Made by a program: the position numbers and the translations under genes. A DNA stretch of 64,000 nt, from assembly GCF_020073745.1 (NCBI RefSeq), contig NZ_JAIRAU010000002.1:81694-145693 (forward strand). The letters run 5' to 3'. This document shows, in pieces, positions 17,182 to 24,627 of this stretch. Every line of letters begins with the position of its first letter. Within the stretch, counting starts at the first letter, position 1. Under the pieces are notes generated by a model. That model was not told the DNA's origin, made no database searches, and saw nothing but the letters and a program-made list of their open reading frames with translations. The DNA is from Nannocystis pusilla (GTDB lineage Bacteria; Myxococcota_A; Polyangia; Nannocystales; Nannocystaceae).

Positions 17182-17301
17182 AGGACATGTCTACGAGGGA
17201 TGTCGCTGCGGGCATGAGCCGCGTGGGTGCGCTTGTGGACATGTCCGGAAGGGAATGTCGTCGATGACATGATGTCGGGAGCATGTCCGCCAGGACAGGT
17301 C
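17182..17301. repeat. dense array of TGTCC/GGACA palindromes in a convergent intergenic region
   Basis: GGACATGTCTACGAGGGATGTCG ... GGACATGTCCGGAAGGGAATGTCG ... GCATGTCCGCCAGGACAGGTC, ending at the stop of the FAD-oxidoreductase gene. Confidence 0.85.
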
Positions 17302-18637
17302 AGCGCGAGCCGAGCAGGGCGCGGCGCAGCACGCTGGGGTGGAACAGGGCGCTGCTCGGGCGCAGCAGGTGCAGCACCTGCATCATGCGCAGCTGGACGT
17401 CGGGCGAGCGGGTGGCGGCGCTGAAGATCCGGTCGACCAGGCGGTGCATGACCTTGAGGCCAGGTGACGGTTTGCCGGTGGTCCCGGGCCAGCGCAGGTC
17501 GTCGCCGACGGCGGTCATGAAGGCGGCCTGGTTGCCGGCGGCGAGGCGCCTCTGAAAGCGCAGGCCGGGCGCCTGGCCGGGGCGGGCGCGCAGCTCGGCG
17601 TCGAGGTGGGTCGAGGCGACGGCGGCGACGCTCATGCCCTGGCCGTAGACGGGGTTGAGGGCGCAGGCGGCGTCGCCGAGCACGACGAAGCCGTGGGGCC
17701 AGCGGCGCAGGCGCTCGTAGTGGCGCAGGCGGTTCTCGGTCCGGCGATAGCCGTGGATGGCGCTGCACGGGGTGGCGCCGGCCAGCGCGTCGCGCAGCGC
17801 CGGGGTCCGCAGGCCGCCCGCGAATTCGAGAAATCCGGCCTCGTCGGTCGGCGGGAAGGCGCCGCCGTAGCCGACCAGCGTGACGATGTGGCGCCCGCCC
17901 TCGACGGCGTACACGACCCCGCCGCGCGGGTTCTGGCCCGGCTTGCCCATGATGTAGAGGACCTTCCAGTCGGGCCGCGCGCGCAGCTCGTAGAGGCGGG
18001 TGGCGTAGCCGAGCTGGGCGTCGATGACGGTCTCGGCGGGCTCGGGGTAGCCGAGCGCGGCCAGCCAGGTCGGGGCCCTGGAGGCGCGGCCGCTGGCGTC
18101 GACGACGAGGTCGGCGCGCAGGTCGTCGGCCGCGAGCTCGGGCACGCCGGCGCGGCGGTGGACCTGCACACCGACGATCCGGTCGCCCGCGTTCTGCAGG
18201 CCGGTCACCTCGTAACCCGCGTGCACGCGCACGCGCTCGTCGGCGACGAGGCGCGTGCGCACGTTCCACTCGAGCAGGCCGCGGGTGCAGGCGCGCGAGC
18301 GCAGCGGCGAGGGCCCGCGCGGCATGACGCCGAACGGGGTGTGCCACTCGACGTCGGCCAGCCAGTCGTACTCGTGCGCCCCCGCGGCCGCGAGCGCGTC
18401 GCCGAGGCCGGGGAACTGCTCGCTCAGGATCTGCCAGCCGCGCGTCAGCAAGACGTGGACGTGGTGGCTCTGCGGGGCGCCGCCGCGCGGCTCCGGTCCG
18501 CCCGGCAAGAGGTCGCGGTCGAGGACGGTGACGCGCTCGTAGTGACGCGTGAGCACGCGAGCGGCGAGGAGGCCGGCGATCCCGCCGCCGATCACGAGCA
18601 CGCGCCGATCCGCCGGCGCGGAGCCTGATGTGGGCAT
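17300..18637 (-). CDS. FAD-dependent oxidoreductase/monooxygenase
   Basis: RVLVIGGGIAGLLAARVL dinucleotide-binding motif near the N-terminus. GDAACALNPVYGQGMS matches the GD-x6-P-x2-GxG motif of flavin monooxygenases. 445 aa. Confidence 0.75.
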   Translation of the reverse strand: MPTSGSAPADRRVLVIGGGIAGLLAARVLTRHYERVTVLDRDLLPGGPEPRGGAPQSHHVHVLLTRGWQILSEQFPGLGDALAAAGAHEYDWLADVEWHTPFGVMPRGPSPLRSRACTRGLLEWNVRTRLVADERVRVHAGYEVTGLQNAGDRIVGVQVHRRAGVPELAADDLRADLVVDASGRASRAPTWLAALGYPEPAETVIDAQLGYATRLYELRARPDWKVLYIMGKPGQNPRGGVVYAVEGGRHIVTLVGYGGAFPPTDEAGFLEFAGGLRTPALRDALAGATPCSAIHGYRRTENRLRHYERLRRWPHGFVVLGDAACALNPVYGQGMSVAAVASTHLDAELRARPGQAPGLRFQRRLAAGNQAAFMTAVGDDLRWPGTTGKPSPGLKVMHRLVDRIFSAATRSPDVQLRMMQVLHLLRPSSALFHPSVLRRALLGSR

Positions 18638-21865: not shown

Positions 21866-23158
21866 ATGATCGCCGCCTTGCTCGCGCTGCTCGCCGCGCC
21901 GGCCGTGACGCCGGGCGAGGACGCGCACTACCACCTCGACAACGGGATCGAGGTGATCCTCCGCCACGATCGCCGGGCCCCGCTGGTCGCGGTGCGCCTG
22001 CGGATCCACGCCGGCAGCGTCGACGATCCGCGCGGGCGTAGCGGGCTGGCCCACATGGTCGAACACATGGCCCACGAAGGGTCGACGCACGCGCCCCGCG
22101 AGCGGCGCGAGACGCTCGAATACCTGCTCTCGGCCCACGCGAACAACGCGGAGACCCGGTTCTATGCGACCGAGTATTACTACACGGCGCCGGCGCAGGC
22201 GACCGAGCAGATGCTGTGGATCGAGGCCGATCGCCTCGGCTTCGTGCGCGGCCAGCACGGCGCGGCCACGCTCGACGCGGTGCGCCGGATCGTGATCAAC
22301 GAGCGGCGCGAACGGGCCGAGCAGGATCCGTTCGCGCGGCTCGAGATCCAGGCGTTGTCGGCGCTGTTCCCGGCGGGCCATCCGTATCACGGGGCGGTGA
22401 TCGGCAGCGCCGCCGATCTGGCGGCGGCGACGATCGCCGACGTCGACGCGTTCCTCGGCCGCTGGGTGCAGCCGGGCAACGCGACGCTGGTGCTGGTGGG
22501 CGACCTGCCGGCCGAGACGACGACGTGGATCGAGCGCCAATTCGGCGGATTGCCGGGCACGCCGCGGCCGGCCGCACGCACGGTGCCGAGCGTGAGTCCG
22601 ACGCAGGAGCGACGCCTGGCCGCCGAGCAGCCGATCGGCGCGGCCCCGGCGGTGCTCATGGCCTGGCCGTCGCCCGCGCTCGACGGCGACGGCGACGCGG
22701 CCGCCGACGTGCTCGCCGAGGCGCTCGAGCGCGGCGGCTTCGTCCGCCTGGCCCGCGCCGAGGCGCCGGCGCAGGTGGCCGAATTCTCGGCGACGCAGCG
22801 CAGCCTGCCGAACCAGTCGATCTTCTTCGTGCGGGTGATCGGCCGCGTGGGCGCGACGCCGGAGGGCCTCGTCGCGGAGGTCGATCGCGTGCTGGCCGGC
22901 GTGGCCGCGGGGGCGCTCGACGAGCCTGCCCTGCGACGCGCTCGCCTGCGGCTCGCGCGAGCGCACCGCAGCGCGAGCCAGGACCTGCAGGACCGCGCCG
23001 AACTGCTGGCGAGCGAGGCGGCGGCCGGCAAGCCGCTCGGGGGGTCGACCGATCGCGATGAATGGTCGGCAGTGACGCAAGAGGCGGTCGCCCGCCTCGT
23101 GCGCGAGGTGCTGCGACCCGAAGCGCGCGTGACCGTGCTGGCGGAGGGCGAGCGATGA
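21866..23158 (+). CDS. M16-family zinc peptidase (catalytic subunit, HxxEH inverzincin motif)
   Basis: HMVEHMAHEGS at the expected position, with a downstream E for zinc binding. 430 aa. Confidence 0.8.
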   Translation: MIAALLALLAAPAVTPGEDAHYHLDNGIEVILRHDRRAPLVAVRLRIHAGSVDDPRGRSGLAHMVEHMAHEGSTHAPRERRETLEYLLSAHANNAETRFYATEYYYTAPAQATEQMLWIEADRLGFVRGQHGAATLDAVRRIVINERRERAEQDPFARLEIQALSALFPAGHPYHGAVIGSAADLAAATIADVDAFLGRWVQPGNATLVLVGDLPAETTTWIERQFGGLPGTPRPAARTVPSVSPTQERRLAAEQPIGAAPAVLMAWPSPALDGDGDAAADVLAEALERGGFVRLARAEAPAQVAEFSATQRSLPNQSIFFVRVIGRVGATPEGLVAEVDRVLAGVAAGALDEPALRRARLRLARAHRSASQDLQDRAELLASEAAAGKPLGGSTDRDEWSAVTQEAVARLVREVLRPEARVTVLAEGER

Positions 23159-24627
23159 GCGGGGCGCGGTCGACATGGATCGACGAGGCGCCGCCCGTCG
23201 ATTTTAATATGTCCTTCGGGACAGCCGGGGCTGAACGTCAGCCGGCAAGCCCCGCGTCCGTCCGGGCGGTCGCGTGGAGGGCCAAGATCGCGGGCGTCCT
23301 CGGGGGGGTCATTGCGATGGTCTTCGTCGTCGCGTGCGCGAGCAATCAGTCGTGGCGGTACACGCCGCCGGAGCTGCCCACGGAGGCGCCGCCGGTGGTC
23401 GCGCCGCGGGTCGAGCGGATCGGGGCGGGGCTGCTGCAGGTGCGCCGCGCGGGCCCGACGGTGGCGATCGGGCTGGCTTTGCGGACACCTCGTGCGATGG
23501 ATCCGTCGCTGGCGAGCTTCACCCTCGAGCTGGTGGCCCGCGGACCCGATCGCGCGATCGAGGACGCGCTCGGCGAGTACGGCGGAGCGCTCACGGCGAC
23601 GTGGCTCGGCGACGGGGCGCTGCTGTTGGCCGAGGTCGACGCGGCCGCGTGGGCGCCCGCGCTGGCGACGATCGCGGCGGCGGTGCGCCGGCCGGAATTC
23701 ACGCCGGCCGACGTCGAGGTGCTGCGGGACGAGCGACTGGCGGCGATCCAGCGCCGCGACGGCGATCCGGCCCGTCGGGGCCTGCACGCGCTGGTGCGCC
23801 GCGTCGCGCCGGGGCTCGACGCGCTCGGCGAGGCGCGCCCGACGTCGCGCTGGTCGATCGAACATGTCCGAAGGTTGCATGCCCAATTGTTGCGCGAGGG
23901 GGAACCTACGCTGGTGATCGTCGGCGATCCGCCCCGGGCCGAGCTCGAGCGGGCCGTCGCCGGCCTCGGCGGGTGGGGCGTCGCGGCGGCGCAATCGATG
24001 GCTCCGGCCGCGCCGGCGCAGGCCCGGGGCGAGGTGCTGGTGGTGCCGCGGCCCGGGCTGGCGCAGACGGCCATCGCCGTCGGCCGCGCGGTCGACGGCG
24101 CCGACGACCTCGCGCTCGAGCTGGCCGCGGCGGTGGTCGGCTCGGCGCTGCGCGAGGTGCTGCGGCGCGAGCGCGGCGCCACGTACGGAGTGTCGGTGAC
24201 GCACACGCCGGCGCGAGGCGGCGGCCTGCTGGCGATCGAGACCCAGGTCGACGCGGCGGCCACCGGCGCGTCGCTGCGGGCGATGATCTCGCAGCTGAAG
24301 GCGGTGCAGGGCCGCTTCCTGACCGGCGAGGTGCTGCGGCTGCTCGGCCGCGCGTTCCAGGTCGAGCGCATGCTGGCTCACCAGCGCGTGGTCGACGTCG
24401 CCGCCGCGGTGGCGCAGCTCCACGTGTCGGGACGGCCCGACGACGCCCTGGCGGCCGAGCTGCGCCGGCTCGGGGCGGTGCGCGACGACGACATCGAGCG
24501 CGCGCTGGCGAGGTGGTTCGAGCCCGCCGCGCTGCAGATCGTGCTGGTCGGCGATCCGGCGACGATCCGCGCCCAGGTCGAGCCGCTCGGCCTCGGTCCG
24601 CTGAAGATCGTGGATGACGGGCCCTGA
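23155..24627 (+). CDS. M16-family peptidase partner (non-catalytic/inactive subunit); alternative start ATG 23209 lies inside a palindromic element
   Basis: ATGA overlap with the upstream M16 gene. No HxxEH. Membrane-anchor/lipobox-like segment (GVLGGVIAMVFVVAC). M16 C-terminal domain-like. Confidence 0.65.
   Translation: MSGARSTWIDEAPPVDFNMSFGTAGAERQPASPASVRAVAWRAKIAGVLGGVIAMVFVVACASNQSWRYTPPELPTEAPPVVAPRVERIGAGLLQVRRAGPTVAIGLALRTPRAMDPSLASFTLELVARGPDRAIEDALGEYGGALTATWLGDGALLLAEVDAAAWAPALATIAAAVRRPEFTPADVEVLRDERLAAIQRRDGDPARRGLHALVRRVAPGLDALGEARPTSRWSIEHVRRLHAQLLREGEPTLVIVGDPPRAELERAVAGLGGWGVAAAQSMAPAAPAQARGEVLVVPRPGLAQTAIAVGRAVDGADDLALELAAAVVGSALREVLRRERGATYGVSVTHTPARGGGLLAIETQVDAAATGASLRAMISQLKAVQGRFLTGEVLRLLGRAFQVERMLAHQRVVDVAAAVAQLHVSGRPDDALAAELRRLGAVRDDDIERALARWFEPAALQIVLVGDPATIRAQVEPLGLGPLKIVDDGP

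Follow-up and report, generated by a model that had tools for sequence, protein, structure and literature searches.

A short threonyl-tRNA synthetase behind a predicted threonine-codon attenuator in Nannocystis pusilla, apparently a member of a widespread and undescribed paralogue family

A 64,000-nt stretch of the Nannocystis pusilla genome (RefSeq assembly GCF_020073745.1, contig NZ_JAIRAU010000002.1, positions 81,694 to 145,693; called the window below and numbered from its first nucleotide) encodes a threonyl-tRNA synthetase (ThrRS) of only 406 amino acids that lacks the N-terminal TGS and editing domains and is preceded by a short open reading frame (ORF) with a run of threonine codons. 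The comparisons described here suggest that this short ThrRS belongs to a widespread and apparently undescribed family of leader-attenuated, editing-less ThrRS paralogues. The explanation that we favour, with a probability of about 0.75, is that it is a self-regulating, demand-induced spare or emergency ThrRS that operates beside a canonical, editing-proficient thrS and is switched on by shortage of Thr-tRNA, while its present gene neighbourhood is a chance juxtaposition at the level of the genus. An earlier note on this DNA, made from the sequence alone, had instead placed the gene in a small tailoring or self-resistance module together with four neighbours.

Genes in the window, which has a GC content of about 74%, were called from third-position GC (GC3) and confirmed by profile scans (Pfam, NCBIfam); all five genes named in the earlier note are present at the positions listed here and below. 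The proposed self-contained unit, consisting of a promoter, a Thr-codon leader peptide with attenuator and the short ThrRS, would comprise the following features, of which the hairpins are predictions.

18887-18915, forward strand: putative sigma-70-type promoter (TTGACC, 17-nt spacer, TATCCC), read from the sequence; the block is identical in N. exedens
18924-18998, forward strand: leader peptide ORF of 24 codons, MLRRATTATTTTTLPGGVGRVRVR*, with Thr at seven of eight consecutive codons (18939-18962)
18958-18975, forward strand: segment 1:2 hairpin CCACCC-UUCC-GGGUGG(GG), in which segment 2, rich in G, is paired with the final Thr codons of the ORF
19016-19049, forward strand: terminator hairpin (segments 3:4) with a GC-rich 14-bp stem and the loop CGAGCC, followed by UUU
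19056-19104, forward strand: hairpin sequestering the Shine-Dalgarno sequence just before the thrS ATG, CUCC (19066-19069) pairing with GGAG (19092-19095), as found in minimum free energy (MFE) folds
19105-20325, forward strand: short ThrRS, 406 amino acids, class II catalytic core plus HGTP anticodon-binding domain

The closest genomic match to the locus was found in Nannocystis exedens DSM 71, with 90% protein identity and full local synteny.

Architecture and active site of the short ThrRS

The truncation of the window ThrRS is genuine. Its only Pfam matches are tRNA-synt_2b (E = 9e-45) and HGTP_anticodon (PF03129, E = 6e-15, residues 313-398), and no Pfam match in the protein was found for the TGS (N1) and editing (N2, tRNA_SAD) domains of canonical bacterial ThrRS. 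The TIGR00418 score is 449.6 bits (cut-off 383.65), with coverage of positions 170-560 in a model of 565. Against E. coli ThrRS it gives an ungapped alignment to residues 242-613 at about 50% identity, and it also aligns to the 242-642 crystallographic construct; the E. coli residue numbers used below equal the window residue plus 228. Remnants of the TGS and editing domains were sought by tblastn queries in the whole window and in nine related myxobacterial loci, and gave no significant match. The in-frame stretch upstream of the ThrRS ATG is an Arg-rich non-coding read-through that overlaps the divergent FAD (flavin adenine dinucleotide) enzyme gene, and the start codon and the GGAG Shine-Dalgarno sequence are kept in N. 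exedens. The earlier note had described a ThrRS-like gene without the N-terminal TGS and editing region and had placed its start near residue 240 of canonical ThrRS. Pfam, the TIGR00418 alignment and tblastn agree on the first point, and the opening of the alignment at E. coli residue 242 bears out the second.

As judged from its sequence, the short ThrRS retains every catalytic, zinc-binding and anticodon-domain feature for charging of tRNA-Thr. The zinc ligands C334, H385 and H511 are identical in 26 of 26 short forms, the window protein included, and so are R363, E365, Q381, D383, Y462, K465, Q479, T482, Q484 and R520, which bind Thr or ATP. Because the TGS and editing domains are missing, the enzyme should aminoacylate without post-transfer clearing of Ser-tRNA-Thr, and editing would be lost in vivo. 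Differences from canonical enzymes are seen in the myxobacterial subgroup, together with one further locus (L010; such handles are given where loci must be told apart). These proteins carry M332V, N333S and L493F, by which they depart from 135-136 of 136 long forms at otherwise invariant positions, as well as V376L, unlike most long forms. Positions 332 and 333 flank the zinc ligand C334. The canonical M332, N333 and L493 are retained in the alphaproteobacterial and Burkholderia subgroup of short forms. L493 belongs to the hydrophobic cluster tied to borrelidin sensitivity, in which M332 also lies. The myxobacterial substitutions could tune the rejection of serine after the loss of editing, or the binding of inhibitors; M332V, N333S and L493F could account either for the exclusion of serine by an enzyme that does not edit or for the evasion of natural ThrRS inhibitors.

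Several known enzymes resemble the short ThrRS in part. The E. coli ΔN ThrRS (242-642; PDB 1EVK/1EVL and later inhibitor complexes) has the same domain content and N-terminal boundary, and its Zn, Thr and ATP residues are identical. It is an engineered construct, whereas the window ThrRS represents a natural family with its own regulation and with the myxobacterial M332V, N333S, V376L and L493F. Null editing activity has been reported for a ΔN ThrRS construct, namely the ΔN mutant of Anabaena T2 (PMC4787780). Yeast mitochondrial MST1 (PDB 3UGQ) and crenarchaeal ThrRS-cat (PDB 3A31) likewise consist of a catalytic core and a tRNA-binding domain without a cis editing domain (PMC4267643). However, each of these is the only or the obligatory enzyme for charging in its compartment or lineage, the archaeal one being partnered by a free-standing editing protein, whereas the window ThrRS is a bacterial-type paralogue that scores about 400 bits against bacterial ThrRS versus 246 against MST1 and 176 against ThrRS-cat. 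The Anabaena pair T1/T2 likewise includes a second ThrRS, editing being impaired or absent, as a stress backup under zinc limitation (PMC4787780). T2 keeps its N-terminal domains, whereas the window ThrRS has lost the whole N-terminus and is predicted to be controlled by a Thr-codon leader. Control of T2 by zinc reportedly acts through Zur.

The Thr-codon leader and its predicted folding

A Thr-run leader is strictly associated with short-form thrS. Such an ORF lies upstream of 26 of 26 short-form genes, composed of 15/15 in a first set, 9/9 metagenomic loci with sufficient upstream sequence and two extra Burkholderiaceae loci, versus 1 of 112 long-form genes (1/58 and 0/54; Fisher exact p = 3e-27). 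The leaders carry 5-9 Thr codons and end about 70-170 nt before thrS. The background of such ORFs is 0.018 per kb, and no other intergenic Thr-run small ORF occurs on either strand of the 64-kb window. The leader peptide of N. exedens is identical to that of N. pusilla, with two synonymous changes in Thr codons. The last 215 nt or so before thrS, which hold the promoter and leader blocks, are nearly identical in the window and N. exedens, whereas the sequence further upstream is not. With Rfam 15, no family reached its gathering threshold in the leader region, the best sub-threshold match being His_leader over 18937-19052 (21.7 bits, E = 0.22). In the literature searched, neither the leader element nor its strict coupling to short ThrRS paralogues is described. 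The motif, which has no Rfam 15 family, may represent a new cis-regulatory family.

The putative promoter recurs with the same geometry and better hexamers (TTGACA...TAGATT) in B. arboris and Caballeronia. A generic promoter and terminator scanner left 18887-18915 uncalled; at 74% GC this scanner is uninformative. The end of the promoter lies only 8 nt upstream of the leader ATG, so the leader would be translated from a leaderless or almost leaderless mRNA.

Downstream of the Thr run the RNA could adopt two mutually exclusive arrangements. The segment 1:2 hairpin appears in MFE folds of the window sequence and of nearly all homologues. The 5' arm of the terminator, CCCCGCCC, is complementary to segment 2 as well, and alternative pairing of the two can form an antiterminator. 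In an alignment of 23 leaders the blocks GGCGGG (GGCGGG/GGUGGG), CCCGCC and CGGGGC are invariant or nearly so, and RNAalifold retains the 2:3 pairing GGCGG(G):CCGCC in 21-23 of the 23 sequences. The terminator forms in 15 of 17 sequences folded without constraint; when the Thr run is masked as a mimic of a stalled ribosome, the MFE structure flips to the antiterminator in about 10 of the 17, N. exedens included. Clear U-tracts are present at L001, L005, L021, L078, L094, L169 and other loci. Further downstream, the GCUCCGUCCG...GGAG arrangement that would sequester the Shine-Dalgarno sequence is conserved in most homologues, and RNAalifold offers an alternative in which the freed 3' arm of the terminator pairs with the anti-Shine-Dalgarno segment. 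On the basis of these folds, the Shine-Dalgarno hairpin may be functionally coupled to the leader.

Leader-peptide attenuation of aminoacyl-tRNA synthetase (aaRS) genes is known from E. coli, where pheM precedes pheST. Enterobacterial thrL (Rfam Thr_leader), which controls the biosynthetic genes thrABC, uses consecutive Thr codons to sense Thr-tRNA and responds to Ile codons too. The window leader gave no match to Rfam Thr_leader even at E <= 10 and has no sequence similarity to it. In Streptomyces lividans leuS, trpS, alaS and thrS are under leader-peptide control by leuL, trpL, alaL and thrL, and these leaders are transcribed leaderless (PMC8079986); hisS paralogues in bacilli are under His leader control (PMC2965389). 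These aaRS attenuators share one layout, with a short ORF rich in the cognate codon followed by a hairpin before the synthetase gene. The Streptomyces thrL has only two Thr codons, whereas the window-type element combines its 5-9 Thr codons with a GGCGGG/CCCGCC/CGGGGC core. Moreover, the window-type element shows a strict association with the short paralogue in several phyla, while the Streptomyces thrL precedes the thrS described in PMC8079986.

Distribution of the family and proposed mechanism

Proteins of about 400 amino acids with 58-92% identity occur across Myxococcota, in Sorangium, Stigmatella, Archangium, Melittangium, Corallococcus, Pyxidicoccus and further Myxococcaceae. In a tree of the catalytic and anticodon-binding region, the short forms make up one clade apart from 67 long proteobacterial ThrRSs; besides myxobacteria this clade holds a Steroidobacteraceae metagenome-assembled genome (MAG), Desertibaculum, an alphaproteobacterial MAG and Mesorhizobium sp. 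UC74_2. When a plasmid-borne member served as the query, the same architecture was recovered from many Paraburkholderia and Burkholderia, including the cepacia complex, and from Caballeronia, Acidiphilium, Inquilinus and Acidobacteria. Short thrS genes are carried by the conjugative plasmid pM7012, by a mobilizable Caballeronia megaplasmid and by a 3.5-Mb B. arboris replicon. An exhaustive search of representatives at 50% identity yielded many more clusters of about 400-420 amino acids that open at the same DHR..LG..L.LFH motif. One ThrRS representative of 430 amino acids (P0215) has a TGS-like opening, MVRITLPDA, fused straight to the RDHRRLG linker, which suggests that some short forms may have arisen through internal deletion of the N-terminal domains.

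The short gene lacks the canonical thrS neighbours, as the earlier note had observed when it described the gene as lying outside a canonical thrS context and as probably an extra copy. The second point is very probably correct as well, in view of the long thrS of M. xanthus and the plasmid- and megaplasmid-borne members in Burkholderiaceae. In PMC9548883, thrS of M. xanthus DK1622 is MXAN_3591, a gene of 1929 bp encoding 642 amino acids with TGS, tRNA_SAD, tRNA-synt_2b and anticodon-binding domains, and is followed by rpmI, rplT, pheS and pheT. The short form is found in congeners of this organism, Myxococcus qinghaiensis among them, and in other Myxococcaceae. Since M. xanthus has a canonical thrS while Myxococcaceae carry the short form, the latter is an additional paralogue at least in that lineage, and a long thrS is presumably present in N. 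pusilla too. A representative search and cluster look-up for myxobacterial long thrS genes returned only unnamed, planctomycete or archaeal long forms, and the literature on long thrS in myxobacteria yielded nothing specific apart from MXAN_3591. A PLSDB search for a mislabelled myxobacterial replicon found none, the best identity being below 60%.

In the proposed mechanism, the ribosome would traverse the leader ORF when Thr-tRNA-Thr is plentiful, after which segments 1 and 2 would pair and the 3:4 hairpin would terminate transcription; in any read-through message the Shine-Dalgarno sequence would still be paired. When Thr-tRNA-Thr is scarce, ribosomes would stall at the Thr-codon run. Stalling would free segment 2 (GGCGGG/GGGUGGGG) for pairing with CCCCGCC in the 5' arm of the terminator, and transcription would continue into thrS. 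The induced enzyme would then restore charging at the price of some Ser misacylation. Candidate triggers are threonine starvation, an inhibitor, and metal or oxidative damage. If the attenuator works as predicted, an error-prone ThrRS would be made only upon charging failure, which amounts to a regulated switch that exchanges accuracy for survival. The family would thereby join a natural loss of the ThrRS editing domain with a cis-acting sensor of Thr-tRNA supply across several phyla.

Some observations weigh against this explanation. The crude masking fold of the window's own sequence keeps its terminator, which is slightly more stable, and the U-tract of the window is only UUU, with none at all in several Myxococcaceae and Kofleriaceae homologues. 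The covariation count over the 23 leaders gave zero pairs with double changes; because the paired segments are nearly invariant, the structural support consists of conservation and not of compensatory changes. In addition, the status of an extra copy in Nannocystis is extrapolated from M. xanthus and from plasmid-borne members.

A wider proposal, which we put forward only tentatively, is that the family is a mobile, self-sensing 'emergency synthetase' cassette of soil bacteria from multiple phyla. A collapse of charging, caused by a natural ThrRS inhibitor or by metal or oxidative damage to the housekeeping enzyme, would call up an editing-less and possibly inhibitor-insensitive ThrRS, and accuracy would be traded for survival. 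In its strongest form, this proposal would have the myxobacterial M332V/N333S/L493F variant dedicated to resistance against the ThrRS antibiotics of competitors.

Gene neighbourhood, alternative explanations and other parts of the window

The other four genes that the earlier note had named lie on both sides of the proposed unit.

17300-18637, reverse strand: FAD-dependent oxidoreductase/monooxygenase, transcribed divergently from the thrS leader, with N-terminal motifs of Pfam DAO, FAD_binding_3 and Trp_halogenase; a neighbour only
20722-21792, forward strand: FlxJ-family S-adenosylmethionine (SAM) methyltransferase, Dimerisation2-like and Methyltransf_2 domains; a neighbour with its own upstream region of about 400 nt
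21866-23158, forward strand: M16 zinc peptidase with HMVEH at residue 63 and a hydrophobic, signal-like N-terminus; a neighbour only
23155-24627, forward strand: M16-like partner with Peptidase_M16_C only, without HxxEH, start codon uncertain; a neighbour only

The FAD enzyme gene is indeed divergently upstream of the ThrRS gene and its Pfam motifs are those of an FAD enzyme; NCBIfam subfamily matches are weak. For the predicted 'small-molecule OMT' (O-methyltransferase) the methyltransferase gene was found, but 'O-methyltransferase' is only a Pfam label, and the best family match is NF053543 (FlxJ family), with 485.1 bits against a cut-off of 560 and an end-to-end alignment over positions 8-351 of 352. 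Likewise, the M16 pair does consist of an active HxxEH member (HMVEH) and an inactive partner, but its proposed role in processing of the kind known for ribosomally synthesized and post-translationally modified peptides (RiPPs) or pyrroloquinoline quinone (PQQ) did not hold up. The sequence of the M16-like partner has a lipobox-like VFVVAC after a basic and then a hydrophobic stretch. This motif and the signal-like N-terminus of the first peptidase point to an extracytoplasmic pair, which would be unfit for cytoplasmic RiPP/PQQ processing. No precursor peptide or maturation genes (e.g. PqqA-E) adjoin the pair, the PqqF model scores 39.9 bits against a cut-off of 320, and the nearest radical SAM gene is 9 kb off, past four unrelated genes.

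The FAD-thrS intergenic region contains one further element, a small palindromic unit at 18700-18760 (CTGTCTGAAGAGACAG-like) with one copy in the window. In N. exedens (L001, 9050-9650) about five copies form an insertion of about 500 nt. The unit resembles a repetitive extragenic palindromic (REP) or miniature inverted-repeat transposable element (MITE)-like repeat.

A local natural-product module in which the short ThrRS would be the self-resistance gene or the amino-acid-activating enzyme, and the methyltransferase, both M16 proteins and the FAD monooxygenase its partners, is now very improbable. In its favour, the five genes lie side by side and keep this arrangement in N. exedens, the myxobacterial proteins differ at M332 and L493, and resistance copies of ThrRS are known. 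BorO is such a copy in the cluster of the borrelidin producer. ObaO is likewise an extra ThrRS beside the housekeeping one of the obafluorin producer; it lies inside the oba biosynthetic cluster, the extra copy occurs only where the cluster is present, and truncation is unmentioned (10.1101/704981). Both are cluster-borne, whereas the window ThrRS has no associated cluster or conserved neighbours. The earlier note had made its module proposal depend on co-conservation of the neighbours, and they are not co-conserved. In tblastn searches of the window proteins against 80 loci retrieved with ThrRS, the FAD enzyme, the methyltransferase, the M16 pair and the flanking genes are syntenic in N. exedens only. 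They are absent at L002-L010, L072, L078 and L087, and proteobacterial and plasmid members lie in unrelated contexts. All-against-all comparison of eight myxobacterial short-thrS loci (Byssovorax, two Sorangium, Citreicoccus, a Polyangiaceae MAG, Myxococcus and two Kofleriaceae) revealed no gene that travels with thrS, and synteny within families only. A Pfam scan of about 30 proteins across 1-50 kb of the window detected neither a precursor peptide nor a core gene of the polyketide synthase, non-ribosomal peptide synthetase, terpene or RiPP type at a distance of up to about 15 kb. The apparent export of the M16 proteins, the separate promoter and attenuator of thrS and the gap of about 400 nt to the methyltransferase gene point the same way, as do methyltransferase orthologues that occur without the other genes: three Enhygromyxa-like contigs carry one at 73-77% identity with no ThrRS or M16 gene alongside, and others, at 61-67% identity, lie within aryl-polyene/xanthomonadin-type clusters and adjoin MMPL exporters. 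The case calls for caution in genome mining. A truncated aaRS beside tailoring-type genes mimics a resistance-guided lead, while the family described here has no cluster association, and tools that flag duplicated aaRS genes will meet short ThrRS repeatedly in myxobacteria and Burkholderiaceae.

Three other explanations of the short enzyme can be considered. It could be the sole ThrRS of its host, with the leader providing ordinary homeostatic feedback as in E. coli pheST and with editing absent or supplied in trans. This would fit the occurrence of the short form in all myxobacterial lineages sampled, a tree that follows taxonomy and a TIGR00418 score above the equivalog cut-off. It is nevertheless improbable in view of the canonical 642-residue thrS of M. 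xanthus, whose congeners (L007) carry the short form, of the presence of the family on conjugative or mobilizable replicons and its sporadic occurrence in proteobacterial groups whose sampled relatives have long forms, and of the lack of a free-standing editing domain nearby in tblastn searches of the window and nine related loci. Still less credible is that the short protein has left translation and works as a regulator, or as a source of Thr-AMP or Thr-tRNA for a pathway of secondary metabolism or of the cell envelope. In general, truncated aaRS paralogues are known to have taken on new roles (PMC4787780), but here the anticodon-binding domain is complete and every tRNA, ATP, Thr and Zn residue is retained, the regulatory logic would sense the translational supply of Thr-tRNA, and the loci compared share no conserved partner gene. 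The remaining explanation is a specialisation of the spare-enzyme reading and compatible with it: the family would serve survival of borrelidin- or obafluorin-type ThrRS antibiotics from competitors or prey, inhibition of the housekeeping enzyme tripping the attenuator and inducing an insensitive one. We regard this as possible but rather doubtful. The leader sensor would read the exact consequence of ThrRS inhibition, carriage on plasmids and patchy spread in soil bacteria fit such a role, and M332V, N333S and L493F affect the nearly invariant positions mentioned above. However, the alphaproteobacterial and Burkholderia subgroup keeps the canonical residues at these positions, Y462 and all other inhibitor-contacting catalytic residues are unchanged, and the substitutions could equally tune discrimination against Ser after the loss of editing. 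Resistance to foreign ThrRS inhibitors, if any, would be unlinked to this locus.

A zinc-sparing backup function was considered as well but is speculative only. The Gluconobacter ThrRS near a Zur-like context is a different paralogue that keeps its editing domain, and no member of the short family was found in a Zur-type context. This paralogue (L088, Gluconobacter albidus plasmid pGS1191_1, 5330-7570) has the editing domain, lacks most of TGS and is distinct from the short family; its neighbours are genes for a Fur-family regulator, DUF1826, folE, hisI, zigA (COG0523) and carbonic anhydrase, a neighbourhood of the zinc-starvation type.

The methyltransferase may have a role of its own. At the left edge the window contains the 3' part of an aromatic amino-acid ammonia-lyase gene (1-1035), a LolA_3-like protein (1381-2163) and an MMPL-family exporter (2240-4624) with 31-34% identity to exporters of aryl-polyene clusters. 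These three genes appear to be the end of an aryl-polyene/flexirubin-type pigment cluster extending beyond the window; genes of these kinds have been assigned to pigment initiation and export (PMC3992019). Since the left-edge genes are of pigment type, the methyltransferase may serve that pathway from 16-20 kb away. In aryl-polyene clusters a halogenase-like FAD enzyme adjoins the methyltransferase, and the FAD enzyme and methyltransferase of the window were considered as a conserved tailoring pair of this kind; this was rejected, the match to the halogenase-like enzyme being only local (37-67 residues). In two Enhygromyxa-like contigs (L085, 5653-9745; L086, 6970-8941) the methyltransferase orthologue is just downstream of ERG4/ERG24-type sterol reductase-like and DUF1295 genes, with a kinase gene (L085) or a PSII_BNR-domain gene (L086) in between. 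The ERG4/ERG24-type neighbourhood hints at a lipid- or sterol-related role of the methyltransferase in Nannocystaceae.

Elsewhere in the window, two paralogous secreted glycine-rich proteins (11234-12082 and about 12600-13671) contain the ALK/LTK glycine-rich domain (PF12810), which is unusual in bacteria. The region 40894-47243, where GC falls to about 65-70%, encodes two pairs of paralogous secreted proteins or lipoproteins without Pfam match and may be an acquired island. Between 33501 and 40422 a radical SAM enzyme gene (33501-34820) is followed by a small ORF (35525-35782), by the gene for a membrane protein of 805 amino acids that contains an HTTM (vitamin-K carboxylase-like) domain, and by that for a ParA/MinD-TPR protein; together they may form a system for peptide modification or one of the membrane, unrelated to ThrRS. 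Finally, 30801-33305 encodes a bacterial MVP (major vault protein)-like protein of 834 amino acids, in which the shoulder domain of MVP is recognizable together with a Vault_3 repeat and with an SPFH/Band 7 region.

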